IMG/VR virus record: IMGVR_UViG_3300036446_000021
Reading direction: 5' to 3' (one strand)
Length of the DNA: 64,000 nt
Source: a virus
Shown here in pieces: positions 33,982 to 56,007 of the stretch (its first letter is position 1; each line of letters begins with the position of its first letter). A program made the translations under genes and the position numbers. The notes below the pieces were generated by a model. The model was not told the DNA's origin and searched no databases. It worked only from the letters and a program-made list of their open reading frames with translations.

Positions 33982-34366
33982 TGGCTCCCATTTCTTTCAA
34001 CGTCACCTGGTATTTCCCGATCGTATTAAACGCAGGTGTCCCCCAGGTGCGGCACCGTCGCCAACCCATTGTGTCACCCCGATCGACATACCAAATGTTG
34101 TTAGATGCCATTGCCGCGATCGCGTTAGTCATATTGCCAAAAACAGCGATTAGCGTGTCGTCAGGAATACTGACTTGATAAGTTTCGTAGCCCTGCCCCT
34201 GAATGGTCAGTTCACTGCTAACGGGGGCATCTGGTTGGATACCCATCGGCGTAACCAATGGATTAGGGGTGAGTATCTTGCTATCGCCAAACCGAATCTG
34301 GGTGTTGTTGAGTCCGAGATTGGTGAAAAGGCGATCGGCTGAAGCTTTGAACAGGTTGATGTTCAT
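33965..34366 (-). CDS. Head-closure-like protein
   Basis: Position and size; beta-rich composition. Confidence 0.4.
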   Translation of the reverse strand: MNINLFKASADRLFTNLGLNNTQIRFGDSKILTPNPLVTPMGIQPDAPVSSELTIQGQGYETYQVSIPDDTLIAVFGNMTNAIAAMASNNIWYVDRGDTMGWRRCRTWGTPAFNTIGKYQVTLKEMGANDYGV

Positions 34367-37300
34367 ACTTTTAACGCCACTTTCAATTGATCAGGCGCGT
34401 CTGGCAACTCTTTCTTCTTGCGCCTCTTCTTGGCACTACACTCCTGGCAGCCACAGTCGCTATCCATTTTTGTGGCTAGATAGGGGTATTGCGCTACGAG
34501 ACGAGATCGGGCTGCTTGTACAACCTCGTGTGACAGCGAGTCCAGGCTCACATGTTTGTACTTGCCCTTGTCACCAAAGTCAGCAGCAGTGCGCGATCGG
34601 GCTTTAGGTGCAAGGGGTGCGGAATGAATGCCTTTTGCAGTCCTTTTTTTGGCTATCGATGGATTCTTGTCGGGATCGAGAAGTACCGTATGCACTCCAT
34701 GCTGCTTAGCGTTTTGCCAATCAGCATTTTCCATTTTTTGCACCTTCCAAGAAAGATCTCTCAAAGCTTCTTGGTTAAGCCCTTTTTGCTTTTTGCGTCG
34801 ATAGTCGGCAGCAGCCTCTTTTGTCACTTCAGAAAGAAATGTAGGTGTGTGTCCGTTTGGAGCAAATCCGCCAACTGTACCGCTTGAACTGGCTGGCACA
34901 AACAACGGCACACCGTAAGGATCTCTATGTTCACCATTCACATTTCTTACAGAGCCATAGTATGATTTGCTTGCCTGTCGTTTCAGTTGTTCTGCTGTCT
35001 CAGTAAATTCTTTAGGCACCGTTGACGGCAACCCGATCGCCTGTCTCTCCCTCCCCTCAATCTCTTTCGATGGCTGCCCCTGCTTTCCTCTAGCCGCTAG
35101 TTGGTTCACTGTTGTTTGCGCCACCGCATAAGTCATTGCCGCATTGCGGTTACTGGCGGTCTCGTTCTCTTGCAGGTTGTTCAATAATTTCTCAATTCGT
35201 TGTCTGGGTGTACCCGTTGGTCTCTGGAAAGTACTGGCTGCTGGCTCAGACAATTGCACTGTATGCGTAGGGTCAAGTTGGTGCAGTGCAGCGTGTGCTA
35301 CAGCATGAATTTGAGCCGCATTTTTGATGTCAGCCTCATGGTTTTGCTGCAACTGATTCACTAGACCAGCAAGACGTTTACCGCGTCCTGATTGTGAGGT
35401 TTCAGGTGGCAAAACTTCAGGCATAATTGCTTTTGTCGGCACAGGTATCTTCATATGCCCCATCACCGCTAAACGTGCTGCTTCTGCTTGTGGAATGACG
35501 ATTGGCGCTTTGGTAGTACCAGGCACGATCGCGCCTACAGTCATGCTGGCTGGCTTCTTAGGAGCAACCTCTGTTGGCGTGTTCTTCACCATTCGATCGC
35601 CCGTCCGTTTTGCGATCGTATTCGCCGCTTTCAAGTCTCGCGTCTGCTGAATCTGCGCTGCCACACCCTGCAACTTAGCAGCATCAGGCTTATCCAATCC
35701 TTTCGAGGGGTGCTCGCCCCCTTGGCTTAGATGCTCAATCAATGCGTTGATTTTGTTGATCCTACCGTGATCAACTGCTGCCTTCTCATTTTTGTGGCAA
35801 TTTCGATGCACACCCTGACAAATGCCCCCGCATTGGTAGGTGGCACTACCACATTTCAAACGCTTGCCAGTAGCGTCCAGGCGTACCGGGTTTGACACCT
35901 TAGCCTCTAGCGCCTCTGTGTGGCTATCCCACCGCACAGTAAACTGATTCGCACTCTCACTGTCGAGCTTAGCTACAGCAGGCTGATAAGTGACATTTCC
36001 GTTGGCATAAGTAAACGCGTAAGACCTGCCATCTTGGGTGCCGACAAATTCACCCGTCACCGTCTTGCCCTGGACATTAAACTTGCGAATGCGGATGGGT
36101 GCCCCGTACAGCCCTGGTGCTTGCAGTTCTTCACCAATGAGTTGAGCCAAAGTAAGGCGATCGTCTAAAGCGTCTTTTCTGCTTAATTTAGCAATCGCTG
36201 TTGCCACTTCCTGTTTAGACATCGAGAATTGACCATAACCTTGGTCAGTCATGCCCATTTTGGCATAGAAGCCTTTAGCACTATCAACTGATGACGCTTC
36301 AATACCCTTACCAAGCTTTGCAGCATGGTGTAATAGTTGATTAAACATCTCGCTGCCAGATCCTTTAGTTGAGCCATCAGCCCCAAAATTCTGCACTGAG
36401 ATCAGTGACTTACCTTCTTTGTAAGACATCGCCCCTGTAATGTACCCGTCTTTGTTATGGCTGGTAAACAAACCGATGCGTGGGTTCTTGGCATCTTTTA
36501 GCGCTGTCAAGGTTCCTTGCTTGCCGTGTCCATTCGGATCATTGGCTTGAGGCTTGAAACGCCCTGACTCTAATTTGCTCACTAATTGATCAATACGGCT
36601 TGTTCTGCCCTGTTGCTCTTTTTGCCCCGATGTAGAGAAAGGGTCTGCGTGCGGCTCAAGAATATGACGACTGGAAACAGCGCCAGTGGGTCTGCCTGCC
36701 TTGCAACTTCCAGGAGGAGCATAGCCTTTGCCGCAGGGTTCCCATTTAGCATCTGCATGCAATTGATCAAGTGCATCAGCGCGTTCATCCTTGTCGCTGC
36801 TTACCTGTACAGCCCAAGCGCGATCAATGCCAGCCCGTCTGACTACTTCATGAGCAAAGTGATTTCCAACAACCTTGTAAGAACCATCTGCGTTTTCATG
36901 CACAAGAATCGGTACCCAGTTCCGCCCGTTTGTTTCCAGTAACTTCCTGGCGGCAGCATCCACCTGCCCTTGAGTGCCTTTATGCTTTTTGTTGGCAGTA
37001 GGATCCGTAGCAATTTCATCGGTATAGAGGTGCTGATAGTTGCCATTGTCGCTAAAGCCAGACCCACCCTCTTTTCTAGATAGCTGGTTTTGCATTGGCT
37101 TAACATGGGCAGCATCCACCTTGTCAGGCACTTGCATCATTTTGGCAAGTGCAATCTGCTCAGGGTTATTCGATACAATCACGCTGTAAGCTCTGCCTCC
37201 TTTGGAAGCATTAGCAGAAGCGGTAATTTTTTCGCTGATGCCACCGATCGCTTGGTACTGATCTTTCCCAGTTTCGATGACCAAAGCAGGGTTAAAATTA

Positions 37301-38547
37301 CGTTCACCTCTATCAAATGCTGCTGTGATAACAGGATCGTTTTTACCTTTGGTCTTTACTTCGTCTGCGTAAAGACTGATGAGGTTACCAACATCGCTAA
37401 ACCCTTTGCCAATATTGCCTAAAGTACGGGCATCTTCTTCTTTGTAGTTCTTTCTTAAAATCGCTAAGTCGTTTGTTTGTTGCGGATTTTGCTCAGTTGG
37501 TTTTGTTGCCGTTGCTTTGCTTTGTTTCTTTTTTACTTCAGGTTTCAGTGCCGATTCTCCAGCTTTTTTTAGTTCCTCTACAGTTGCCTTCTTGCCCTGT
37601 TTTTTTAACTCTGTCCGCTTTTGCTCGATTGCGGCTTCAACTTTCGCTTTTGGCGTAGCTTGATTCACTGGCTGACTGGTTGAGGAAGACGCGGTTTTAG
37701 CACCTCCTTTCTTTGCTCTCACGCACCCAGGTCTATTACCCTCCCAACCCCGTCCGCACTTTTCAGCGTCCTCCCGTAACCGCTCGATTGCCCCACTCAT
37801 GTCATAGTCAAGGTCAGCATACTTAGCGATCGCTTTTTGGTGGGCTTCAATAGTTGGCATCTGAGCATCTTGTTTGGGTTGAGTTTTGAGGTGACGCGCG
37901 ATCGCCCAGCCTGCCATCGTTAGGTCAAAGAGCGTCGATCGTTCCTGCTGAGTTAGTCGGTCAGTAGTTCCAGCATCAGCATCAGCGCGGCTGACAGGCA
38001 CCCTAGCAGTAACCAGTGCATGAAGGGCTTTGCCTTGTTTGGTGAGTCGTTCGGCGTATCTGTGGGCAAGGTCTGAGACTGCAACGGCTGTACTGATGCC
38101 GCCTGCTTTTCCGGCAATGATGGCTCCAAGGGCTTTGGCATGTGCTGATCCTTCTATATGTTCCAACGCCGAATGCGCCCCTGAATGCGAACTTTTGCCG
38201 ATCGCCCCTGCTGCCGCTTCAGTAATAAATTTGGCAGCAAGTTCTGTAGGGTTACGATTCTCTGGCTTGCGGGCATGGATGAGAGTAGCAGCGATCGCTT
38301 GAACTGCGGTTTCACTAATCAGATGAGCCGCGCCAGGGGGGAAACCGTGCGAAGCTGCCACTTGCGCGATCGCGCCTCCTACTGTCTTGCCAACGCCCCA
38401 GGATAATGCTGATTCCGAGACGTGTTCTGCTGCATGAGCGACTTTAGACCGAACGCAATGCCCCTTTAGCCCTTCCCATCCCTTACCGCAGTCATCATCC
38501 AGCCTGGCTTCGACGAGGCTATTGACACGGGCAAAGGTTGTAGACAT
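34363..38547 (-). CDS. 1394-aa multi-module head-associated protein (two ParB-like domains, GNAT domain, Cys micro-modules)
   Basis: NFNPALVIETGKDQYQAIGG and NWVPILVHENADGSYKVVGNHFAHEVVRRAG (ParB/Srx-like); KGSGSEMFNQLLHHAAKLGKGIEASSVDSAKGFYAKMGM (GNAT motifs A/B). Confidence 0.65.
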   Translation of the reverse strand: MSTTFARVNSLVEARLDDDCGKGWEGLKGHCVRSKVAHAAEHVSESALSWGVGKTVGGAIAQVAASHGFPPGAAHLISETAVQAIAATLIHARKPENRNPTELAAKFITEAAAGAIGKSSHSGAHSALEHIEGSAHAKALGAIIAGKAGGISTAVAVSDLAHRYAERLTKQGKALHALVTARVPVSRADADAGTTDRLTQQERSTLFDLTMAGWAIARHLKTQPKQDAQMPTIEAHQKAIAKYADLDYDMSGAIERLREDAEKCGRGWEGNRPGCVRAKKGGAKTASSSTSQPVNQATPKAKVEAAIEQKRTELKKQGKKATVEELKKAGESALKPEVKKKQSKATATKPTEQNPQQTNDLAILRKNYKEEDARTLGNIGKGFSDVGNLISLYADEVKTKGKNDPVITAAFDRGERNFNPALVIETGKDQYQAIGGISEKITASANASKGGRAYSVIVSNNPEQIALAKMMQVPDKVDAAHVKPMQNQLSRKEGGSGFSDNGNYQHLYTDEIATDPTANKKHKGTQGQVDAAARKLLETNGRNWVPILVHENADGSYKVVGNHFAHEVVRRAGIDRAWAVQVSSDKDERADALDQLHADAKWEPCGKGYAPPGSCKAGRPTGAVSSRHILEPHADPFSTSGQKEQQGRTSRIDQLVSKLESGRFKPQANDPNGHGKQGTLTALKDAKNPRIGLFTSHNKDGYITGAMSYKEGKSLISVQNFGADGSTKGSGSEMFNQLLHHAAKLGKGIEASSVDSAKGFYAKMGMTDQGYGQFSMSKQEVATAIAKLSRKDALDDRLTLAQLIGEELQAPGLYGAPIRIRKFNVQGKTVTGEFVGTQDGRSYAFTYANGNVTYQPAVAKLDSESANQFTVRWDSHTEALEAKVSNPVRLDATGKRLKCGSATYQCGGICQGVHRNCHKNEKAAVDHGRINKINALIEHLSQGGEHPSKGLDKPDAAKLQGVAAQIQQTRDLKAANTIAKRTGDRMVKNTPTEVAPKKPASMTVGAIVPGTTKAPIVIPQAEAARLAVMGHMKIPVPTKAIMPEVLPPETSQSGRGKRLAGLVNQLQQNHEADIKNAAQIHAVAHAALHQLDPTHTVQLSEPAASTFQRPTGTPRQRIEKLLNNLQENETASNRNAAMTYAVAQTTVNQLAARGKQGQPSKEIEGRERQAIGLPSTVPKEFTETAEQLKRQASKSYYGSVRNVNGEHRDPYGVPLFVPASSSGTVGGFAPNGHTPTFLSEVTKEAAADYRRKKQKGLNQEALRDLSWKVQKMENADWQNAKQHGVHTVLLDPDKNPSIAKKRTAKGIHSAPLAPKARSRTAADFGDKGKYKHVSLDSLSHEVVQAARSRLVAQYPYLATKMDSDCGCQECSAKKRRKKKELPDAPDQLKVALKV

Positions 38548-38584
38548 AGCTTAAACCGATAACTGCCCATATCATAACCGTGTC

Positions 38585-39439
38585 TCAAAGTAAAGATTCT
38601 GTTTTCTCGGCAAAACGGCATGGTCTTGTTAGCGTAGCTTCTATACTCCACCCCATTTTTAATCTCGCCCCAATGGTGCCACTTGTTAGCCCTGTATCTC
38701 TTGCCCAAGCAGCAATTGAGAGCATTTTTCCGTTATAAGAAAGTATCCGCTTTGCTCCGTTACGGGTTGTCAGCGCTTTCTCTACAGTCCATCCAAATTT
38801 GTCAATGCGGTTAGCAATTACAGAACCTGCTATACCCAGTCTTTCGGCCCACTCTGCCAAAGTCAGTCGTTCGCCGTTAAATTCTATAAACCGATTTCTT
38901 CTAGTATTTCTGGCTTGCTGCTTTTTTGTTGCCCAGTAGCAATTCTCAGGGCAGTAGTCGCCATCATTATCTCTACGATCGATAGAATGCTCTGAAGATG
39001 GTTTTAAACCCATGTCAGCAATGAAGTTCTCAAACTTACGCCAGCGATCGCAAACTTTTATTCCTCTACCGCCGTAGTCCTCAAACCTTGTGTCTTTAGG
39101 GCTATCGCATCGACGGATCATCTGACCCCATATTCTATATTCTGGAGTTTTTCCGCCAACTGTTGCGCCATGACTTAAGTTATGCCTTGTTACAGGAGGC
39201 TTATTAATTGTCCGACAAAGCTCTGATTTGTAACATCCGCAAGATATGCCCTTGCCAGTGATTACTATCTGCGCGTTAGTAATCTTTTCTTTGCCGCAAT
39301 CGCATTTGAACAGCCATAAATGCTTGTAAATCCATCCGCTTACAGGATGTTTGCACTTCTCAACAAGCCTTACAGCCTTTAATCGTCCATATTTTTGACC
39401 AGGACGCAAATCATGTATACTTGGCATTGCAGCCTCCAA
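38585..39439 (-). CDS. HNH homing-endonuclease-like protein with repeated C-terminal DNA-binding modules
   Basis: WLFKCDCG; YGGRGIKVCDRW; HSIDRRDNDGDYCPENCYWAT; two [FY]NGxxLT/SxAxWA repeats. Confidence 0.85.
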   Translation of the reverse strand: MEAAMPSIHDLRPGQKYGRLKAVRLVEKCKHPVSGWIYKHLWLFKCDCGKEKITNAQIVITGKGISCGCYKSELCRTINKPPVTRHNLSHGATVGGKTPEYRIWGQMIRRCDSPKDTRFEDYGGRGIKVCDRWRKFENFIADMGLKPSSEHSIDRRDNDGDYCPENCYWATKKQQARNTRRNRFIEFNGERLTLAEWAERLGIAGSVIANRIDKFGWTVEKALTTRNGAKRILSYNGKMLSIAAWARDTGLTSGTIGARLKMGWSIEATLTRPCRFAEKTESLL

Positions 39440-39576
39440 CTAGGTTGTCATCCCCCGGCTCTGACTCCCCAGAAAGAGCGCGGGGCTTTTACTTATTCTA
39501 GCATTTCGCCACTCAACACCAAGCAAGATGCACAAAGCGGTAAAAAGATCAACGCGATCGCTTGTTCTAGGGCAAA

Positions 39577-40089
39577 ATGGAACTGTCCATCCTGGACAGA
39601 CTGATGAACCTCGATACTCTCTTAAAGACGATCGCGCAAATCCCTGAAGACCTGGCAGAAATCTTGTCCAAGGTGCGTTTGCTGCCATTAATCGTCACTG
39701 CTCTCTCAAAAATGGAAGATAGAATTATGTCCACTCTCTCTGATTTCGAGGCATTCAAGCCCAAAGTGCTAGAGCTAATCGACAAGCTCAACCAGTCTAC
39801 TGACCAATCACAGCAACTAGCTGACGTGCAGAAGCAGTTGGCTGAAGCACTGGCAGATGATAAGGCTGATGAAGAGGCGATCGATGCTGCCAATGCTAAG
39901 GCGGCTGAGTTGCAAGCGGCGGCTGATGCCAAAGCCCAAGAAGATGCTCAGTTGACGGCTGAAATCGCTCAATTGAGTCAGCAGATTGGTGGTGATGCTC
40001 CTGCAACTGCTACGCCCGCACCTGTAGCACCTGTGGTCGAGCCTGACCCCGTAGCGCCACCAGTTGTACCTGCTACGCCCGCTCAATAG
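39577..40089 (+). CDS. Acidic Ala-rich coiled-coil protein with Pro-rich tail
   Basis: QLADVQKQLAEALADDKADEEAIDAANAKAAELQAAADAK...; single plus-strand gene followed by a terminator. Confidence 0.6.
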   Translation: MELSILDRLMNLDTLLKTIAQIPEDLAEILSKVRLLPLIVTALSKMEDRIMSTLSDFEAFKPKVLELIDKLNQSTDQSQQLADVQKQLAEALADDKADEEAIDAANAKAAELQAAADAKAQEDAQLTAEIAQLSQQIGGDAPATATPAPVAPVVEPDPVAPPVVPATPAQ

Positions 40090-40109
40090 TTGTATTGCTT
40101 TCTGAAAGG

Positions 40110-40139
40110 CGAAACCCCTGCCGAATAGCAGGGGTTTCG
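40110..40139. terminator. Intrinsic terminator between convergent genes
   Basis: CGAAACCCCTGC-cgaata-GCAGGGGTTTCG 12-bp stem followed by a T-tract. Confidence 0.8.
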
Positions 40140-40143
40140 TTTT

Positions 40144-40368
40144 CTATAGATTAGATTTTTTCTCTACAAGTCCCGTTTTGGATTGAAACAAAGACTGAAT
40201 ATTACCTGTACTGTTAACAACCCTTTTCAAAAATTCTTCATAACAGTCTGAATTTGATAGCTTTGGTTGTGGGTGTCGAATATTGCCTGTCTTGTTTATG
40301 ATTGTATTCTTAACAACTTCAATACTGCCAATTTTTTTGTCGTCAAGCAAGTAAATAAATTTAGTCAT
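40144..40368 (-). CDS. Small hypothetical protein coupled to the portal-kinase gene
   Basis: 74 aa, AT-rich, start shares base 40368 with the upstream stop. Confidence 0.5.
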   Translation of the reverse strand: MTKFIYLLDDKKIGSIEVVKNTIINKTGNIRHPQPKLSNSDCYEEFLKRVVNSTGNIQSLFQSKTGLVEKKSNL

Positions 40369-43300
40369 TAAAAGCCTGCCTTTACTAGCTTTTCTAGCAA
40401 TTCTTTAGCGTACCCGAAGCTGTCTCTAATAGAATTCTGCCTTTCTGGAGTAAACTCTTGTCTCTGTTTTTCATCCGAAGAAGGTATAAGTTTGTCTTGT
40501 GATGCTATAGCACTCTTGGCAAATTCGGCTTTATTCATATCAGCAAGCCCGCGCAGTGTTTCTACAAAAAGGTGTAAATTTTCTTTCTCACTATGTGTCA
40601 ACTTTTTGTTTGACAAAACAGAATCAAAACTTTTTTCAATAGCCTCACGTTCGTAATCTCGATAGGGCGAGTAAGGAGACTTGTAGAAAGCACCTTCATT
40701 ATCAATAGCGTGATAGGAATCTGTTTTCTGATCGTAAAAAATATTTCCATCATGACGATCGCCATTAAACGAAAAAACATCAAAAGCGTGTATCCTGGCT
40801 AAATCTGGATGGCTGATAGCATTTTTAAGCGCATCCTTGCTAGAAAGCATAAGACTATCGGGTTGTGTAAATTTCTGAACCTCCCCCAGCGACACTCCCG
40901 ACACAAATTGGCTCAATATTCTAGGGTAGCGATCGTCCTTGTCTGCTATTTCTGGATCTTCTATTTTGATCTTTGCTGTATTAATTCCGGCTGCTTGCAT
41001 TACCTTTTGTGCAATCATCTCTGATGTGTTGTCATAAGGAATATAACCAGTCATAGCGCTGGCAACTTTTGCAACATACTTCTGACCTCGATCGTCCTCA
41101 AAAATACTGTGTTTATTTTCGCCGATTGTGCCTAATTGTTTAAGCTCTTCAAAATTAACCAAATCTTTTTTAGTTAGAGCTAAGTCAGCAGTTCTGTTTT
41201 TTGGTTCTTCTGTGGCTTTTGCTTTCGTTTTTGCTTTTGCCTGCCGCTTCGGTTTCTTCTCTGCCGTTGGTTTTTCAGCCACAGTCGCGGGTGTTTTAGG
41301 CTTAACAGATCGCGTCTTCTTCTCAGCTTTTTCGGTCTTAGCCTTGGCAGATGCTTTCTCAGCCTTGGCTGAAGTTACAGCGGGCTTATCCTCACCTCTA
41401 GCAGCAGCGATCGCGCTCCTCGCCTCCACCTTCACCACAGCCCGTGCTGCTGCTCGTAGCTCTTTGGCAGTCGGTTCCTTGCCTGCTTTTTTGGCTTCAC
41501 GGCGCGTCTTGTCGATCGCCTTCTGAATCTTGCCGCGCAGGTCTTTCTCAATAGACTCAGGGTCAGCCCCGGTCTTTTTGGCGATCGCGGTAGCAATAGC
41601 AGAGGATGTCTTGCTGGTCTGATATTTGCCGCCTTTAGTCCCACCCTTAGCTTTAGTAGCAGTCTTTGGGGTAGCAGGAGTGGCAGCGCCTTCACCAACG
41701 AACTCTGCGATCGCAACATTAGACTTGCCAAAGGTGTTAAACTTCTTGCCTTTCTCCAGCCCTTCATTCTTGGCTTTGGCTTTGGCTAAAAGCTCCTGAC
41801 GAGTGGCATCCAGACGCACATCAGAATCTTGTTTAGCAAATTTGCGGGGGTCGTAAGCCCAATTTCTGAGGCTAATTAGGCGTTTAGTCATCCACACGGG
41901 CGCGTCGGCACTAACAGGCTCACCCTTACCTGCACCACGCATGCGAGCAATAAACGACACCGTTCTGAGCGCTTGTGTGGCATCTGCCTGCGTCCACTGT
42001 GCTTTAGGCTTCTGCAACAGTCTCAGGTTGCGTTGGATAGGTGCGCGATCGACACTTGCCAGTTTGCTCCAACGTGTTTTAGACCATGCCAGAAACTCAC
42101 TGGCACTCATGTTCACAGCGCCGTGGTATTTGGCATAGGCGGTGTCGATTGGTGAGTCAACAGCATCAAGCCTGTACCGCTCTAAGTCAGCTAAACTTAT
42201 CGCCTTAATGCCACCGAACATATCGGCAGGCATCACCTTGAGGAACGTCTCGCGAGCAGTATCCAGGCTGTCAAAGCCCAGCATGTATTTGTGCTCATCA
42301 AATTGCCCATCAATGAGTTGAGTGACTTCAAAGACCCGATTGCTTTCCAGGTCGGTGCCGACATAGCAATCACACGCCATGCCATCCGCACCGCGAGTCT
42401 TTTGAATATGCCCGTATGCCACAGGCAACACCTTCCCATGCCGGATATCGAAGGGCTGATATTGCAGCCCTAGTTTCAAGCCCTGCCAATCGATAATGCG
42501 TTTGACAGGAGTGGCATCATCCAAATGAAATGAGTCAGCAGAGTCGAGAAGAGCGCGATCGCTCAAAATATCGTCCGCGATCGACTGGTCTTGCTGCGCC
42601 TGTTCATCTTGCCCCAGTGCCTGATCTTCATCCGCAGTCGCTCCGTCCGCAGGCTGATCGCCACCTTGTAAAGCACTTACGTCTGGCTCAGTTGGTTGTG
42701 GTTTGGCTTCTTCCTTGATGTCACGTTGCAATGCCTCAGCGTATGGCTTGGGCAGGGTGATGGCACTGCTGTACTCTTTCTGTCCATAGGTAGCCGCGAT
42801 CGCCACCTTGCCAAAGCGTGGGTCAACACCATTTAAATCCTGAATCAACTGTGCCCGCTTTAGTTCTAAGTCAGCCTGTTCCGCTGGCGACGGTGGATAA
42901 GGAGGTAACCATTCCCACCCCAAACCATCAGGCAAGTCTCCATTTGTGGGTCCTGACTTGCAAAGGCAGACTAACTGCTGCAAGTCTTGAATGCTGTCGT
43001 CATATTTATCAACCTGGAACTGCGTTGTTGTCTCGTTCCACAGTTGGTTCTCAGTGGTCGATTGCCCGGTCGAGTTTAAGCCACTGGCAAACTCCCCAAA
43101 GGCGATCGCGGGTGGCAGGTCAATGCTCGCCAAAAGATTTTCCTTGACGCGATCATGCAAGTCACTCATACCTGTCACTTGCCGCGTCCAGTTGTCCAAC
43201 GCCTCGTTATCCATATCAATCACCTGAGTCCGGTAATTGCTACGACTGATCTGATCAACCTGCAAGCGAGTCAGCAGTTCGGCTTTGTACTCGTCACCGC

Positions 43301-44105
43301 GATCTGCTAAGTTCTGCGCCAGGTCTTTCACCTTACGGACAGGCACATCAAAATCGGTGAGCATACGCCCCGCCGCTTGTACAGCAGGTTGATACATGAA
43401 CCACGCATCACGCACCAATTCAAGAATCGAATCATCGCAGCCATTATTGGCAATGAGGTCGTAGTCGTCAAGAATCGGCACACCCCGAAACCAATGCACA
43501 CGACTCCTGTGAATGCGTTGCCCGTTGGCATAACCTTTCATGTTGTAAGTATTCAACACAATGTAGTGCTCCGGCAACCCACTACTCAGTGTGGAAATGT
43601 CTGGTCTAAGCGCATGACGTGAGAGCAGCGCCATTTTATTGATGCGCTTGATGTGTTCGCGATCTAGCGGCTCATCCAGTTTGCGGCCATCATCAACATC
43701 GAGCACTAAACCACTATTGCCAGTTTGTAGAGCAAGCTCACCCGCGATCTGATACCCCTTTTTGGTTCTGCCAAGCCGTTGCAAGGGTGTGACAACTGGA
43801 ATATTGTTGACAGCATCGGCGATCGACTGGAGCAGCTTAGCGTCACCGTTTGCCAGTGTCGGTCTACCCCACCGCCAAGTGGCAGCTTTGGGCAAGTTTG
43901 TAGTCAGCTTTTTGAGCAGCCCTGACTGACGGACTAGCGCTGATTGCTCTTGCCTTGAAAGACGACTCAGACCAGGTTGAATGTAGGTATGCTGCGTTGG
44001 ATCGACATACGGGTTCCCCATGCCTGTGTAGGGATTCTGCAAACCGCTGAAGACTTGCAACAGGGAATCTAAACGGATATCGAACGTTGGAGTTTCAGAA
44101 GACAT
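40368..44105 (-). CDS. DUF1073-type portal protein fused to InPase-like, DUF3140-like and HipA-like kinase domains
   Basis: N-terminal ~440 aa portal (RIHRSRVHWFRG; IPPAIAFGE-like DLPPAIAFGEFASGLNSTG; WEWLP); YGHIQKTRGADGMACDCYVG...FDEHKYMLGF; VNMSASEFLAW; YVAK...SEMIA...DRHDGN...AIDNEGAF. Confidence 0.78.
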   Translation of the reverse strand: MSSETPTFDIRLDSLLQVFSGLQNPYTGMGNPYVDPTQHTYIQPGLSRLSRQEQSALVRQSGLLKKLTTNLPKAATWRWGRPTLANGDAKLLQSIADAVNNIPVVTPLQRLGRTKKGYQIAGELALQTGNSGLVLDVDDGRKLDEPLDREHIKRINKMALLSRHALRPDISTLSSGLPEHYIVLNTYNMKGYANGQRIHRSRVHWFRGVPILDDYDLIANNGCDDSILELVRDAWFMYQPAVQAAGRMLTDFDVPVRKVKDLAQNLADRGDEYKAELLTRLQVDQISRSNYRTQVIDMDNEALDNWTRQVTGMSDLHDRVKENLLASIDLPPAIAFGEFASGLNSTGQSTTENQLWNETTTQFQVDKYDDSIQDLQQLVCLCKSGPTNGDLPDGLGWEWLPPYPPSPAEQADLELKRAQLIQDLNGVDPRFGKVAIAATYGQKEYSSAITLPKPYAEALQRDIKEEAKPQPTEPDVSALQGGDQPADGATADEDQALGQDEQAQQDQSIADDILSDRALLDSADSFHLDDATPVKRIIDWQGLKLGLQYQPFDIRHGKVLPVAYGHIQKTRGADGMACDCYVGTDLESNRVFEVTQLIDGQFDEHKYMLGFDSLDTARETFLKVMPADMFGGIKAISLADLERYRLDAVDSPIDTAYAKYHGAVNMSASEFLAWSKTRWSKLASVDRAPIQRNLRLLQKPKAQWTQADATQALRTVSFIARMRGAGKGEPVSADAPVWMTKRLISLRNWAYDPRKFAKQDSDVRLDATRQELLAKAKAKNEGLEKGKKFNTFGKSNVAIAEFVGEGAATPATPKTATKAKGGTKGGKYQTSKTSSAIATAIAKKTGADPESIEKDLRGKIQKAIDKTRREAKKAGKEPTAKELRAAARAVVKVEARSAIAAARGEDKPAVTSAKAEKASAKAKTEKAEKKTRSVKPKTPATVAEKPTAEKKPKRQAKAKTKAKATEEPKNRTADLALTKKDLVNFEELKQLGTIGENKHSIFEDDRGQKYVAKVASAMTGYIPYDNTSEMIAQKVMQAAGINTAKIKIEDPEIADKDDRYPRILSQFVSGVSLGEVQKFTQPDSLMLSSKDALKNAISHPDLARIHAFDVFSFNGDRHDGNIFYDQKTDSYHAIDNEGAFYKSPYSPYRDYEREAIEKSFDSVLSNKKLTHSEKENLHLFVETLRGLADMNKAEFAKSAIASQDKLIPSSDEKQRQEFTPERQNSIRDSFGYAKELLEKLVKAGF

Positions 44106-44173
44106 TGCGCTTTGCTGGAGTGCCGCTGCTTACATCATGCCTTGCAAGGCACAAAACGGTGCAACCTGCAAGT

Positions 44174-45754
44174 CTAGACGAGCGACTTCATCCAATTAAC
44201 GTTAGATGGCATTTGATCAAGACTAGCAAAGGCGATCGCCGCCGCCATTACCGCATCATCATGCATCCCTGATTCAGCTTGACGCAACCGCGAAGCCCCT
44301 TTGATAGTTTCAATAAAATGCGGCATCTCTTGAGCAATCGCGCTGTCTGCCGGGAACTGTAACTGTTCGCGCTCTAAAAGCAAAATGAGGCGATCGGTGT
44401 TGATCAACTTGGATGTATTAGTGGTGCAGACACCTTGCCAGTTCCAGGCCGCTTTGAGCTGACTCAGATCTTCTAGGATGAGTGTACCGCCTGAGTTGGT
44501 TTCAACACTGACCACGCCCGGTTTATATTGTTCTAGCAGCAAAAGCGATTGAGAAATACTGTAATCTTTAGTCTTGCGACTGGCACCATATTCTGCTGCC
44601 AATGAGTATGGCGTGCGTGTCACATCCCATACTTGACAACGGAAAAAGTCGGCACCGCCAAAGTTGGGATCAATCCCTGCCAGATAACGTCGTCCTTTCT
44701 GCGGTGCTTGCAAGCGCCCAATCGTAGCTTTCTCAATCAACTCAAGGTTGAAAACATTCTTCTGCCCTTCGCTGAACTGAAGCTCGTATTCTTGATCCCA
44801 AGCTTGTGTAGTTAACTGGCGTTCAAGGCGCGTTTTTTCTGCCCACTCAGGATCAGCACCATACAGCGGATGCGATCGCCAATGCAAGAAAACTTTGGCC
44901 CATTTCTTGTGCTCCCACGAGCGGGTATTAGGATTTTGCCCCCGCTGAAACGGCACAATGTTGTTGGCAGGCTGACGAATAGCTGTCAAGGTTTCATTGA
45001 CGCGTTTGGCTTCGCCGACACCAGCCATAATCAAACGGTAGAATAGCCCTGTACGTCCGTTCGGCGTACTGTTAAAAATCACCTTGCCGCGATCGCCCAA
45101 CATTGATAGTGTCGGCATGGCTGCCTGGTATACCCCGTCAATACCGTCGATAAACGCAGCTTCGTCAAAGAGAATGACCGAAACAGATGGGATACCACGA
45201 GCAGCGCGGGCGGTAACAGGTAGGAAATGAATGCGTCCCAGACCCTTAAAGGCAAGTTTGGTTGCACTTTCGCTAGTTAGTACTGGGCAAAGCGAACCAA
45301 GAGAGATTGCCATGTCTCGAATCCGTCTGCCCAATTCAGACGAATCACCTTGAGTCTTGCTGAACACTACGGCACTAAACCCTGGTTCTGTGAGCGCTCG
45401 CATCAACAAATAGCAGCAGATGGTTTCTGAAACACCCATCTGCCGTGACTTGCAAATGACTGTGTTCTGACTTTGCTCGATTGATTGGATCAGGTCAATC
45501 TGGTAGTCGTATGGTGCAAACGGTTTGACCGTACCAGAGGTCTGAATCTGGGTCATGGGCGCAAAGATTGCCCACAGAGACACGAACGCCCCTACCGCAA
45601 TCAGCTTTTGTGCCGTTTCCCTTAAATGCCTTGCAACAGTCGATTCTTTCGTCGATGCTGTAACGCTATCATCAATCAGCTTTTGCGTGGTTGACTTAAG
45701 CCTGCGATCGCTATGCTTCGGTAGTAGCGCTAGGCTCATCACCGTCACCTTCAT
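44174..45754 (-). CDS. Terminase large subunit
   Basis: KSRQMGVSE (Walker A), ILFDEAAF (Walker B), NSTPNG, AGIDPN and HDDAVMA nuclease motifs. Confidence 0.92.
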   Translation of the reverse strand: MKVTVMSLALLPKHSDRRLKSTTQKLIDDSVTASTKESTVARHLRETAQKLIAVGAFVSLWAIFAPMTQIQTSGTVKPFAPYDYQIDLIQSIEQSQNTVICKSRQMGVSETICCYLLMRALTEPGFSAVVFSKTQGDSSELGRRIRDMAISLGSLCPVLTSESATKLAFKGLGRIHFLPVTARAARGIPSVSVILFDEAAFIDGIDGVYQAAMPTLSMLGDRGKVIFNSTPNGRTGLFYRLIMAGVGEAKRVNETLTAIRQPANNIVPFQRGQNPNTRSWEHKKWAKVFLHWRSHPLYGADPEWAEKTRLERQLTTQAWDQEYELQFSEGQKNVFNLELIEKATIGRLQAPQKGRRYLAGIDPNFGGADFFRCQVWDVTRTPYSLAAEYGASRKTKDYSISQSLLLLEQYKPGVVSVETNSGGTLILEDLSQLKAAWNWQGVCTTNTSKLINTDRLILLLEREQLQFPADSAIAQEMPHFIETIKGASRLRQAESGMHDDAVMAAAIAFASLDQMPSNVNWMKSLV

Positions 45755-46247
45755 AACTGTCAGTAATCAAAAATCCGTTGGGCAGTGGTTTCACTTTGTA
45801 CCCATAAGCTGCAAATGTTGCCAACGCGTCTGACAGAGGTAGTCGTTTGCCAATGACACTTTCAATCACCCATTGCGGTGTAGGCACTGAGCTAACGACC
45901 TTTTTTTTCTCGATCGTCACTTTGGCATCGCCTGTTTCTACGCCATCCTTATCTGTAAGTGCCTCAGTTTTTTCAATTTCGTAGATGTTGGTCTGTTTGG
46001 CTCTGCCATAAAGGTAGCTATCTCGCTGCTTGAGTGCCTGTTCAATGATTTCAGGATCAACATGGCAACGATAATCGTTCAATGCTAACTGTACTTTCTG
46101 GACTAGGGGGGTAACGGTATGCAGCCAAAAATAATAAGTTGACTTTGTAATCTTGGCAGCTTTCCAGGCGGTCTTAAGACTACCAGTTCGTCTAATAGTG
46201 TCCAATAAAATTGCTTCAACTTCTGGCGTGTATTTACTTTCAGCCAT
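45711..46247 (-). CDS. Terminase small subunit
   Basis: N-terminal HTH (GSLKTAWKAAKITKSTYYFW); directly upstream of and overlapping the large subunit. Confidence 0.7.
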   Translation of the reverse strand: MAESKYTPEVEAILLDTIRRTGSLKTAWKAAKITKSTYYFWLHTVTPLVQKVQLALNDYRCHVDPEIIEQALKQRDSYLYGRAKQTNIYEIEKTEALTDKDGVETGDAKVTIEKKKVVSSVPTPQWVIESVIGKRLPLSDALATFAAYGYKVKPLPNGFLITDSYEGDGDEPSATTEA

Positions 46248-46558
46248 TAGCCAACTAAATCCTTAAAGTCACAACCAAACACCTTTAACCACTCTCTCAA
46301 CTCTGGCGGATCGACTTTGCGCCCCGCATTCATGATTGCGTAAACGGACGATCGCGGTAGCCCAATCATGTCAGCAAGCTGACTAATGTTGTAAGGCGAT
46401 CGCTCAACTTGCTGCCTAAATTTACTAGCAAAAAGCTGCTGAGGCGTAACAGGTGTAGTATTTTCGGACACTTCCGCGTCGCTCAATCTTAGCAAGGGTA
46501 AAACAAGATATTGACCTAATGCCCTTATTATGCCTTCGGCTACCGCCATTCGGTTCAA
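46247..46558 (-). CDS. Xre-like HTH protein (true start probably a downstream GTG near 46471)
   Basis: SPYNISQLADMIGLPRSSVYAIMNAGRK; the listed start overlaps the divergent gene. Confidence 0.65.
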   Translation of the reverse strand: MNRMAVAEGIIRALGQYLVLPLLRLSDAEVSENTTPVTPQQLFASKFRQQVERSPYNISQLADMIGLPRSSVYAIMNAGRKVDPPELREWLKVFGCDFKDLVG

Positions 46559-47963
46559 CCAATTAGCGACAATCGATCACTTCGACTCGAAAGACGGGGT
46601 GATGACGGTCACGGCGATCGCGCGCACGCCGGGGATATTGACCTATCGTAATGCCGATGGATCTACTCGTCGTGAGTTGGTATCGCGTGAGTTTCTGCGA
46701 CGAACAGATAGCAATGGTGTACCTTTAGTTGCTCAACTAGCAAACTTACCCGTAACAAATGAACATCCACCTTGCTTGCTGCGAAATGATGCTGACCTAT
46801 TGAAAAAGTATCAAGTAGGTAGAACTCAGAACAAGGTGCATGTCTTTGACGACGGACGTGTCCAAGTTACTTTTGACGTTTTCGATCCAGAGACACAAGA
46901 CGATATTCGCCTTGGGCGTAAAGACGGCGTGAGTGTCGGTTACGAAACAGCCGTAAAACATGATGCTGGCGAATGGCATGGACAGCATTTTGATGCTATG
47001 CAAGACGAGCCGATTGACAAAGACCACATGGCAGTCTGCGTGAATAACAGAGCGATTGGCGCAAAGATTAAAGCTTTCAAATTTGACTCCGCTGACACGA
47101 CTGATATTGCGTGGCAAGTAGACAGCGTGGAACCAGAACAACCTTTAACAGCTACTCGCAAGGATGCGCCCATGCCTCAAATGTTCCAGATCGAACTGGC
47201 AACACCCGACGGTAAAGCGCCGTTTATGGTGCCTCGTGAACTGTACATGGAAATTAAGCGACTCGGTTTAGATGATTGTGGCTGCCATGTTGACGCAGCA
47301 GAAATGGAATTAGTCTTTGATGCTGACGATGCTGAATATCGCGTTGATAGTGACGATACACTGTGGCGCTTTGATAAGGCGACAGGCAAAGGAAAGCAAT
47401 GTCCAGGCGGATATTACATTCCACAAAATCGAAACTGCAACCCCAAAACTCATGCGAAACGGGAAGGGCAAAAGTTAAATAAATTAGCTCAGAAAAAATC
47501 AACTTTTGACCCAGACTACGAAAAAGTAGCAGGCAAAGCAATTGATAAAAGCATGATGGCAGCAAAAGGTAGCCTTGCTGCTAGGGTTTCTGAAAACGTT
47601 CTTTCTAGTGCCTACTCTCGCGTTTCTTCGCCCTATACAGAAGGTTTAAGAAAAGAAGAAGCTGATCATCTCGCAGCAAAGACTCTGGCAAGGCGAATGC
47701 GGCGAGGCAAATCACAAAATACAACGGGCGAAATTGCCGAAGAGGCGAAGAGCAGAGAGCAAATAAGATCGCATTTCAAAAACGAAGGCATGGAACAAAG
47801 TTTGGCTTCTGACAAATCACGCAAAAAGCTAGCTCAGAAAAAGCGTATAGCCGAAAAAAGAAGACTTCAATCACAAGGTTTACCAAATGAAGGCGGCGCT
47901 TTTAGAGCAAAAGCAGCGTCTGGAAAAGGTAAACGAGCTTCAACTTACAGGATGCCAGCATGA
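46530..47963 (+). CDS. DUF2213-type prohead (maturation protease-like) protein with basic C-terminal extension
   Basis: IARTPGILTYRNADG...RELV...PVTNEHP...GVSVGYE...HMAVC...RAIG. Confidence 0.8.
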   Translation: MPSATAIRFNQLATIDHFDSKDGVMTVTAIARTPGILTYRNADGSTRRELVSREFLRRTDSNGVPLVAQLANLPVTNEHPPCLLRNDADLLKKYQVGRTQNKVHVFDDGRVQVTFDVFDPETQDDIRLGRKDGVSVGYETAVKHDAGEWHGQHFDAMQDEPIDKDHMAVCVNNRAIGAKIKAFKFDSADTTDIAWQVDSVEPEQPLTATRKDAPMPQMFQIELATPDGKAPFMVPRELYMEIKRLGLDDCGCHVDAAEMELVFDADDAEYRVDSDDTLWRFDKATGKGKQCPGGYYIPQNRNCNPKTHAKREGQKLNKLAQKKSTFDPDYEKVAGKAIDKSMMAAKGSLAARVSENVLSSAYSRVSSPYTEGLRKEEADHLAAKTLARRMRRGKSQNTTGEIAEEAKSREQIRSHFKNEGMEQSLASDKSRKKLAQKKRIAEKRRLQSQGLPNEGGAFRAKAASGKGKRASTYRMPA

Positions 47964-55941: not shown

Positions 55942-56007
55942 AGTCTAGCCTTCAATTATACTATCATGAAGTGATAATATTTCGATTATAGACATATTAT
56001 TACCAGC

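Follow-up and report, generated by a model that had tools for sequence, protein, structure and literature searches.

A prophage portal protein of a cyanophage carrying pyrophosphatase-like, DUF3140-like and kinase-like modules: a candidate portal-anchored cargo protein

The window analysed here, a stretch of 64,000 nucleotides of viral DNA, belongs to a 102.2-kb temperate cyanophage that is integrated as a prophage in a cyanobacterium, with an 11-bp att core, and its contig contains a perfect 102-kb tandem duplication. There is a TerS-TerL-portal module in which the gene immediately downstream of that for the large terminase (44174..45754, minus strand; Terminase_6N/6C, phrog_2) encodes a portal followed by several further modules. 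According to the ORF list and its translation, this portal-cargo gene (40368..44105, minus strand, stop codon included) specifies a protein of 1245 aa and 138 kDa, begins with ATG and contains no internal stop over 3738 nt. Profile searches of the neighbouring genes turned up neither a prohead protease nor a major capsid protein. Nearby there are, in addition, an HNH homing endonuclease and further insertions.

Residues 1–450 (42756..44105, minus strand) make up the portal domain. Phage_portal_3 (PF06381) matches residues 55–422 (E 7.7e-32; 110.8 bits, cut-off 33.8; profile positions 4–356 of 357), which agrees with the position given in a first-pass annotation made from the sequence, and phrog_146 (portal) matches residues 11–508 (E 4e-46). 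In a profile search of the genome it is the sole Phage_portal_3 match, present in both tandem copies, while no match to Phage_portal (PF04860) or SPP1_portal (PF05133) was obtained. Since no other portal was matched in the genome and this one adjoins TerS/TerL, the 1245-aa gene is taken to be the working portal gene of the phage, with a normal portal in its N-terminal 450 residues.

The portal is followed by an acidic spacer rich in Gln, Asp and Glu (residues 451–530; 42516..42755, minus strand; pI 4.1, net charge -16) that is conserved in the closest protein homologue (P0002), and then by the expected InPase domain (type I pyrophosphatase-like OB; residues 531–648; 42162..42515, minus strand), which ends in YRLDA and for which the PF18823 match to residues 538–644 (E 2.8e-19) is well above the cut-off, with 69.8 bits against 26.8. 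Its residues D553, D574, D579, D603 and E604, putatively metal-binding, are invariant across 9 homologues. The next module (residues 649–759; 41829..42161, minus strand; pI 10.6) had been annotated as DUF3140-like; its location was confirmed but the direct Pfam match (PF11338, residues 660–723) was weak, at 17.5 bits below the cut-off of 25. The assignment instead runs through a stand-alone phage protein (P0141) which is 59% identical to residues 653–755 (E 4e-42) and which itself exceeds the DUF3140 cut-off (26.9 against 25), so that the module is a member by transitivity only; an Atlas feature match to a viral DUF3140 cluster scored 0.77. Compared with the closest homologue the module is an insertion, missing in P0002/L003 at both the protein and the DNA level. 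The Lys/Ala linker of the earlier description corresponds by composition to a basic segment (residues 760–984; 41154..41828, minus strand) with 40% Lys plus Ala and a net charge of +29. It is 64% identical to P0002 overall, and 59 of 60 residues are identical in a core of about 60 aa (819–878). This segment is common to relatives with different terminal cargo.

The C-terminal part (residues 985–1245; 40371..41153, minus strand), supported by 129 homologous cluster representatives, an alignment, a structural model and GC content, is an atypical protein-kinase-like domain. The Lys, Glu, DRHDGN and IDN motifs noted at first reading are indeed retained: the predicted catalytic residues K1013 (YVAKV), E1029 (TSEMIA), D1116, H1118 and N1121 (DRHDGN, 1116–1121) and D1135 (IDN, 1134–1136) all fall at conserved positions when 36 sequences are aligned, with Lys, DRHxxN and ID conserved across them. 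The AF2 model (pLDDT 92.8, pTM 0.92) has a bilobal PKL fold with a complete set of catalytic residues, and the kinase is thus predicted to be competent. Its best structural matches are CtkA of Helicobacter pylori (PDB 3akj/3akk; Z 15.8) and the actin-fragmin kinase of Physarum (1cja; Z 14.9), with CotH (14.3), PI4K-IIalpha (14.2) and HipA (12.5; 11–12.5 for the HipA/HipT toxins) behind them. All share the DxHxxN catalytic loop and a downstream metal-binding Asp, although over the 214–225 residues aligned sequence identity is only 8–15% and no family threshold is reached. The designation “HipA-like” therefore holds for the relationship in kinase fold but not as the closest affiliation, as CtkA, actin-fragmin kinase and type II PI4K are nearer (Z 14–16) and a profile search of the 1245-aa protein detected no HipA N-terminal domain (Couple_hipA, PF13657).

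The domain remains below threshold for every Pfam kinase family. HipA_2 (PF20613) comes closest, with 19.7 bits against 27, and this threshold is exceeded by two relatives (P0013, P0014); HipA_C (PF07804) reaches 14.9 bits against 30.5. A PI3/PI4 kinase assignment (PF00454) was rejected at 16.6 bits against 27.1, with a match that covers the catalytic loop only; a profile search of the PDB with the kinase gave PI4KB at E 0.014. Kinase-PolyVal (PF18762) was likewise discarded, as there was no match at the locus in a whole-genome search at E up to 1 or in a Pfam scan at E up to 10. A HipA-type arrangement with an upstream HipB/HipS-type antitoxin is not seen here, the small partner gene being located downstream and matching no Pfam family.

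This partner, an ORF of 74 aa (40144..40368, minus strand), has an ATG that overlaps the stop codon of the kinase (TAATG). The AT-richness reported for the kinase DNA was substantiated, with a GC content of 0.395 (GC3 0.337) for the kinase and 0.316 for the partner compared to 0.51–0.54 for the other modules. A perfect hairpin with an 11-bp stem (40111..40138), read from the sequence between the partner ORF and a convergent 170-aa ORF, is likely to be a bidirectional terminator and marks the 3' edge of this block, although a consensus terminator scan that requires a T-run did not call it. We interpret these features as a foreign low-GC two-gene cassette in which kinase and partner arrived together. 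A partner homologue follows the kinase in all 8 loci examined, which cover both major kinase clades; in 7 of them it either adjoins the kinase stop or overlaps it, and in the eighth (L076) it starts 109 nt downstream. Two of the partner ORFs were recovered as untrained profile matches (E 2e-6 and 8e-7), and in six other loci the pair is a stand-alone two-gene unit. Conserved genetic linkage of this kind is what toxin-immunity or kinase-inhibitor pairs would be expected to display. Predictions of a kinase-partner complex weakly favour binding, with a median of 0.42 (runs 0.21, 0.86 and 0.42; best control 0.00), in a range where scores up to 0.60 prove wrong in more cases than not; the runs have at least 51% of contacts in common, and partner pLDDT is at least 53. 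Among solved complexes 58 of 80 reach the mark applied to such predictions, compared with 2 of 110 mismatched pairs. For the partner itself, a low-confidence Atlas model resembles Couple_hipA with a TM of 0.48, a lead only.

The first-pass annotation had suggested that the portal serves as a carrier for a swappable kinase, and a comparison of the C-termini of portal homologues agrees with this, as differing modules follow the same portal family. In P0002 the portal is 48% identical, the DUF3140 module is missing and another terminal domain follows the shared basic segment, and in the closest relative on a viral contig (L012, 41% identical) a homologous basic stretch is followed by an ADP-ribosyltransferase (ART) in place of the kinase; no ART was found in the 1245-aa protein or anywhere in its genome when these were searched. 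Other related portals carry InPase only, Acb1, two ARTs, MuF plus DUF3626, or NUDIX plus Zeta toxin, with MuF fused behind the portal in P0003–P0005 and L025. Viral-contig relatives with an intact C end (54) fall into 33 of <600 aa, 13 of 600–800 aa and 8 of at least 800 aa. When the DNA is aligned with that of the closest relative, the flanks are conserved and the kinase cassette between them is replaced by non-homologous sequence. As relatives carry other cargo after the portal, these comparisons show the cargo to be modular and exchanged between related phages.

There is also a second portal-InPase-kinase protein (P0030), and InPase is joined to the kinase in P0026, P0029 and P0052. A split with 97/98 support separates the two portal-fused kinases, each of which is placed beside stand-alone kinases, which is why we interpret the portal fusion of this kinase family as having arisen at least twice, independently. 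ART genes are found beside stand-alone kinases of this family in two further loci (L004, L076).

The motif [RKH]LD[AS] occurs three times in the 1245-aa protein (residues 11, 645 and 764) where 0.26 occurrences are expected (P 0.002), such that RLDA at 645–648 and 764–767 flanks the DUF3140 module; the same motif is found at module borders in P0002 and L012. This positioning hints at cleavage. As YRxD at the end of the InPase domain is conserved in distant homologues, however, it may have a structural role and not be cut at all, and the junction of basic segment and kinase has no RLD[AS]-type site.

The principle of a portal with cargo is already known from polyvalent proteins (Iyer, Burroughs, Anand, de Souza and Aravind, J Bacteriol 2017; PMC5512222), where portal-InPase and portal/MuF-effector fusions were described, including gp124 of Burkholderia phage BcepF1 as a portal-InPase example, and from MuF-type polymorphic toxins (Jamet et al. 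2017, BMC Biol; PMC5576092). The gene described here is by its architecture a member of this class of head-packaged multi-enzyme proteins: portal, InPase (of the PF18823 type), DUF3140 and kinase, a virion anchor and unrelated enzyme domains, are combined in one polypeptide of the TerS-TerL-portal module of an integrated prophage, and in both cases the proteins are proposed to be delivered together with the DNA. It differs from the polyvalent proteins in that the kinase is of the CtkA/AFK/PI4K-II/HipA_2-like branch and not Kinase-PolyVal, in that DUF3140 and HipA-type kinases go unmentioned in PMC5512222, in that no metallopeptidase (MPTase) processing domain was detected in the 1245-aa protein, and in that its terminal module has a dedicated small partner gene. 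In this last respect it is closer to the MuF toxins, which have a small ORF, putatively for immunity, behind 89% of their genes (PMC5576092), and which also occur in temperate phages, combine a conserved head-protein N-terminus with a variable C-terminal toxin or enzyme domain, and have cassettes common to unrelated carriers. Here, in contrast, the portal itself is the carrier, with no MuF (PF04233) match in the protein (P0001), and the word kinase does not occur in PMC5576092. What is new is the kinase with its overlapping 74-aa ORF as a low-GC cassette, the linkage to the partner throughout the loci examined, and the repeated fusion of kinase to portal.

We consider it reasonably probable that a functional portal has been extended into a polyvalent (polymorphic-effector) protein with the portal as anchor, whose cargo includes a kinase that is delivered and is silenced by its partner. 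The portal ring is kept in the capsid and is not ejected with the DNA, so delivery would need cleavage. The portal barrel reaches into the capsid interior (bioRxiv 10.64898/2026.04.10.717836), and as portal C-termini point inwards, 12 copies of the extension of about 88 kDa would lie inside the head beside the DNA. Cutting at the RLD|A-type sites on either side of the modules would free pieces able to exit together with the DNA during infection, with the basic segment riding on it. The lack of a protease profile match among the neighbouring genes counts against such a release, as does the fact that a kinase that is not cleaved off would remain in the capsid. Once inside, the kinase may phosphorylate host proteins early and so weaken defences or reprogramme the cell; CtkA, too, is a kinase that is exported into another cell. 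T7 Gp0.7 provides a functional precedent, as it is described as phosphorylating many host proteins early (PMC13645617; Robertson and Nicholson 1992, cited in PMC5512222) and as disarming defences in this way (PMC13645617), although the T7 kinase is newly synthesised from an early gene rather than carried in the virion, and no search that was run produced a sequence match between it and the portal-fused kinase. InPase might remove pyrophosphate or a nucleotide signal. The partner, as an immunity-type protein or inhibitor, would bind the kinase and silence it in the virion-making cell or the lysogen; against a role in immunity, a lysogen has no obvious need of protection from a late-expressed protein.

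That the extra domains act instead in the phage-producing cell seems unlikely to us, but has arguments in its favour. Unassembled portal fusion, or fragments of it, would then act in the cytoplasm, either late in the infection or once the prophage is induced, and fusion would serve co-expression and dosage. Retention of the portal ring in the capsid fits this reading, as does the lack of an identified protease at the locus; also, in one relative (L026) the kinase has a gene of its own, 3.6 kb away from that of the portal, so that linkage is not obligatory. The T7 portal Gp8, moreover, is described as binding RelA/SpoT and suppressing alarmones (PMC13483052). However, late expression leaves little time for take-over or anti-defence, co-expression alone hardly explains repeated independent fusion to a virion protein, and the Acb1, ART, NUDIX and Zeta toxin cargo of related portals is also found fused to MuF and other head-internal proteins, whose packaging has been documented or is commonly inferred (PMC5512222, PMC5576092). 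Quite improbable, in our estimation, is that kinase and partner form a selfish cassette for toxin-antitoxin action, addiction or superinfection exclusion, placed in frame by recent recombination and tolerated as an accident that serves the prophage or lysogen. The foreign composition covers exactly these two genes, the pair stands alone elsewhere, the kinase fold is related to that of the HipA/HipT toxins, and the homing endonuclease and other insertions indicate a region that accepts mobile DNA. Yet the gene sits in a late packaging operon and lacks its own promoter-like site, and within the frame no ATG that could start the kinase separately precedes its catalytic Lys. Other effector enzymes occupy the position behind the same basic segment in relatives, arguing for a dedicated cargo slot and not a random landing, and the second portal-kinase fusion is independent.

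To an assembly or annotation artefact, i.e. a missed stop, a frameshift or a chimeric join, we assign hardly any weight. The sample is of metagenome type and the perfect tandem duplication could partly be an assembler path, but the possibility of an artefact is largely refuted. Positions 38000–47192 of the window align with 0 differences and 0 gaps to a 43.1-kb Logan contig that was built independently from run X1, which is the only public run holding the gene and may be the source of the assembly itself; no missed stop or misassembly between domains was seen in this comparison. The portal-cargo gene is letter-identical in the second tandem copy, and the uninterrupted frame of the original description thus stands. 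The same continuous frame through portal, InPase and basic segment is also present in homologues from other samples.

At the level of sequence, the comparisons show a portal that appears functional, C-terminal enzymes that are modular, and a fusion between the two that is recurrent and independent. The portal-cargo gene (40368-44105, minus strand), which is immediately preceded by the small and large terminase genes, is one ATG-started frame of 1245 codons according to both the ORF list and the translation. Its product, P0001, begins with a portal domain (Phage_portal_3, residues 55-422, E 7.7e-32) that passes the cut-off and is also matched as portal by phrog_146. An acidic spacer (residues 451-530, net charge -16) leads to an InPase (residues 538-644, E 2.8e-19), which likewise passes the cut-off and has kept five invariant acidic residues. 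The next module (residues 649-759) scores 17.5 bits against DUF3140, under the cut-off of 25. The label is nevertheless accepted by transitivity for residues 653-755, because these are 59% identical to the last 100 residues of P0141, a stand-alone 160-aa phage protein encoded near a terminase, which does pass the DUF3140 cut-off. No mention of DUF3140 was found in a literature search.

The basic segment ahead of the kinase (residues 760-984, net +29) had been described in the first-pass annotation as a Lys/Ala linker. This holds for its composition (K+A 40%) but not for the notion of a featureless linker, as 59 of the 60 residues of its core (residues 819-878, window 41472-41651) are identical in P0002, the closest protein, while portal identity is only 48%. 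The core, for which Spo0A_C (E 0.03) is the sole Pfam hint, could represent either a conserved element that binds DNA or a recombination handle for cargo exchange. The basic segment recurs ahead of an ADP-ribosyltransferase (ART) in L012, the closest viral contig. The N-terminal portions of the stand-alone kinases P0008, P0009, P0012 and P0015 do not resemble the basic segment in P0001, P0002 or L012, so there is no evidence of a shared recombination handle on those proteins.

A comparison of the C-termini of close portal homologues, as had been proposed earlier, revealed differing terminal modules behind a common portal family. P0002 (1478 aa, from a metagenome) has portal and InPase in common with P0001 (48% identity overall, ~85% in the InPase) and a basic segment that is 64% identical; the DUF3140 module is wholly absent, and ~300 unrelated residues stand in place of the kinase. 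In the DNA alignment with L003, the locus of P0002, homology extends through the InPase, breaks at window 41823-42206 (384 nt, the DUF3140 module), opposite which L003 has only 45 nt, resumes in the basic segment, and is absent again from 41382 to 40006, a stretch corresponding to the end of the basic segment, the kinase, the partner ORF and a hairpin, before it returns in a convergent 170-aa ORF. L012 (109 kb, 41% identical) combines the portal and the same basic segment with the ART, without an InPase. In other relatives the protein stops after the InPase (~660-710 aa), or its cargo is a pair of ARTs, Acb1 (anti-CBASS), MuF with DUF3626, or NUDIX with a Zeta toxin. Among the IMG/VR relatives, the C end is intact in 54; of these, 33 are plain portals of <600 aa, 13 have 600-800 aa and 8 at least 800 aa. 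On contigs, relatives were found by the alignment-based scan only; scanning genome contigs and viral contigs with the single protein (residues 1-650) returned none.

Two of these cargo regions deserve separate mention. The first comprises L003:4628-5048 and P0002 residues ~1170-1478, where the terminal ~300-residue domain has no Pfam family and small ORFs (51 and 92 aa) likewise start no more than 3 nt behind it, which may make this a further cargo-partner pair. In the second, L036:7674-10979 (IMG/VR 3300044541_000063), an Acb1 domain (PF23474, E 3e-19) is joined to a portal from the same Pfam family; a known anti-defence enzyme, the anti-CBASS phosphodiesterase, would thereby be carried in the virion.

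When 1.84 billion representatives were searched exhaustively with HMMER, 129 relatives of the kinase (residues 985-1245) were obtained at E <= 1e-3, the best being 37% identical. In a 36-sequence alignment, K1013 (the ATP-anchoring Lys), DRHxxN (1116-1121) and D1135 (the metal-binding Asp of IDN) occupy invariant or near-invariant columns, and E1029 is matched by Glu in most rows. All Pfam matches are below threshold (HipA_2 19.7 bits, PI3_PI4_kinase 16.6, HipA_C 14.9), and phmmer found none among PDB sequences. A single-sequence AF2 model (pLDDT 43.5) was dropped and the alignment-based AlphaFold2 model (pLDDT 92.8, pTM 0.92) was used instead. When compared by Foldseek and VIA-align, the latter was closest to CtkA (Z 15.8), followed by actin-fragmin kinase (14.9), CotH (14.3), PI4K-IIalpha (14.2), HipA (12.5), LepB (11.9), HipT (11.4) and class I/III PI3K (~9.5). 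The kinase motifs noted in the first-pass annotation are thus present, while the sub-threshold Pfam scores and the structural ranking leave "HipA-like" as only a loose label. On the alignment and the model, a CtkA/AFK/PI4K-II-like atypical kinase with an intact active site is the more accurate description. The kinase is not a member of Kinase-PolyVal, the family described for polyvalent proteins.

Directly behind the kinase lies its partner, which the first-pass annotation had not noted, a 74-aa ORF (40144-40368, minus strand) that begins at the kinase stop (TAATG) and is followed by a perfect hairpin with an 11-bp stem. Low GC is confined in this region to the kinase (0.395) and the partner (0.316), the other modules having 0.51-0.54. 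Judged from the sequences, the kinase-partner cassette is shown to have been acquired recently. A promoter/terminator consensus scan around it gave nothing above shuffled expectation, and the hairpin (40111-40138) was not called.

A partner homologue follows the kinase at 8 of 8 loci. Stand-alone kinases of the same clade (L004, L007, L010, L076) are each followed by a homologous 58-73-aa ORF after 0-3 nt (109 nt in one), the one in L076 being an untrained profile match (E 2e-6). The other clade includes the portal-fused P0030 and, as its sister, the stand-alone P0019. In both, the kinase gene overlaps a following ORF of 172-174 aa (mutually 49% identical), the first ~69 residues of which align to the 74-aa family (hhalign 73% probability, E 3e-5). 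With a combined profile, an untrained 78-aa ORF was detected directly after a separate 562-aa kinase gene on viral contig L026 (E 8e-7). A word-based search for partner homologues gave only the four clusters already known, the partner had no meaningful match and no family in Pfam at E up to 10, and Atlas features provided no usable match; a Couple_hipA-like assignment (TM 0.48) was discounted, as the Atlas model is poor (pLDDT 0.43). Complex prediction for kinase and partner gave a median of 0.42 (runs 0.21, 0.86 and 0.42; best control 0.00), on a scale where 58 of 80 solved complexes attain the mark, as do 2 of 110 mismatches, and where a pass at or below 0.60 more often proves false than true unless binding is already likely. 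At least 51% of contacts agree between runs and the partner pLDDT is at least 53; the prediction weakly supports binding.

In a maximum-likelihood tree, the kinases of P0001 and of P0030 (1410 aa), the second portal-InPase-kinase protein, are separated by a split with 97/98 support, and each has stand-alone kinases next to it. As the portal-fused kinases lie on opposite sides, the portal-kinase fusion arose at least twice. InPase and kinase are also joined, without a portal, in P0026, P0029 and P0052. ART genes were seen just upstream of stand-alone kinase-partner pairs (L004:2-721, L076:3182-4378), the former ORF extending past the contig end and sharing 36% identity with the ART terminus of the L012 portal; such arrays look like stored effector cassettes.

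Polyvalent and MuF proteins are a known class (Iyer 2017, PMC5512222; Jamet 2017, PMC5576092), defined by the fusion of enzymes to head-internal proteins, and portal-InPase fusions have been described explicitly. What is new is that a cyanophage portal bears this kinase type and no ART (a search of the whole genome for PF03496 gave no match), together with the DNA-level evidence of cassette replacement and the conserved partner gene. That an assembly artefact makes several genes appear as one, against the uninterrupted frame initially reported, is very unlikely, as it is contradicted by a separate 43.1-kb contig of run X1 that is identical to window 38000-47192; this "algae metagenome", the sole public run with the stretch, may be the assembly's own source. 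Portal C-terminal crown/barrel regions face the capsid interior, e.g. in the phi24B portal (bioRxiv 10.64898/2026.04.10.717836). Twelve extensions of ~88 kDa would lie inside the head, would be cut at RLD/A-type sites and would exit as pieces with the DNA; the kinase might then act early on host proteins, having been restrained by the partner in the producer cell. The motif [RKH]LD[AS] occurs three times in P0001 (0.26 expected, P 0.002), with the copies at 645 and 764 flanking the DUF3140 module exactly, and is also found at the portal/basic-segment border in L012 and the InPase/basic-segment border in P0002. Weaknesses of the cleavage idea are that no motif of this type was found ahead of the kinase and that searches of the neighbouring head-region ORFs yielded no protease. 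In addition, YRxD at the InPase end persists in distant homologues, so its role may be a structural one.

Of the possible explanations, we tentatively prefer this delivery of portal-anchored cargo; a phage kinase is reported to be able to disarm many defences (PMC13645617). A bolder and less probable reading is that the kinase and a partner with a ~65-residue domain constitute a previously undescribed mobile two-gene phage module, an atypical CtkA/AFK-like kinase gated by a small cognate inhibitor and plugged onto portals behind the basic "handle". Each virion would then inject the kinase in about 12 copies, broad in action and able to disarm defences, but silent until out of the producer cell. 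Among the rivals, action of the unassembled portal fusion in the cytoplasm, for which the reported moonlighting of T7 Gp8 (PMC13483052) is a precedent, seems to us rather unlikely, and a selfish toxin-antitoxin or exclusion cassette that became fused to the portal by accident is more doubtful still. If the pair does consist of effector and inhibitor, it would represent a new family among phage anti-defence and take-over tools and would account for the small ORFs trailing such cargo; beyond that, current understanding is unchanged.

Multi-enzyme proteins anchored by a portal or MuF form a class of phage weapon that is recognised but almost untested; this locus adds one more member. It is a clean natural experiment, with a cyanobacterial host, a prophage apparently still excising, and one cargo slot whose occupant differs: the kinase in P0001, an ADP-ribosyltransferase in one relative and another domain in a second. 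The kinase active site is intact and the partner gene tightly linked, and the predicted delivery of enzymes by portals would be open to direct testing. The window is placed at G000:C70:54261-118260, in a genome (7.28 Mb, 50.3% GC) whose 16 phycobilisome-protein matches identify the host as a cyanobacterium. Contig C70 contains a 102,201-bp prophage twice, as a perfect tandem duplication (C70:8024-110235 and 110225-212436), bounded by the 11-bp core CATGAAGTGAT (window 55965-55975, G000:C70:110225-110235). In X1, the phage-phage junction unitig has a depth of 188 vs ~500 for the phage arms, and loose ends at the core are host flanks (attL/attR), indicating that integrated and circular/tandem forms coexist; read depth suggests a temperate cyanophage that is excising and possibly active. 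Megablast of the portal-cargo gene against GenBank phages gave no match, and no RNA run was among the matches listed in a public-run search with this gene or the kinase alone.

Between the head genes, an insertion not present in the otherwise collinear L003 encodes an HNH homing endonuclease (phrog_374, E 6e-66; window 38508-39535, ORF 38585-39439, minus strand; GC 0.44-0.47, lower than its surroundings). The next large head-region gene (34363-38547, minus strand, 1394 aa) is mosaic as well: its ends match two L003 genes that are separate there (encoding 574 aa and 482 aa; identity up to 85%) but joined in one frame here, and a 1.7-kb stretch (36164-37863) is not in L003. It carries 12 [RKH]xD[AS] motifs (2.2 expected). 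The gene product looks like a second polyvalent head protein. PHROG and Pfam searches of the neighbouring head-region ORFs and the 574- and 482-aa L003 proteins did not find a prohead protease, scaffold or major capsid protein. The convergent 170-aa ORF (39577-40089, plus strand), located between cassette and HNH gene, is 76% identical in L003 and has a weak match to phrog_10, "major head protein" (E 4e-4).
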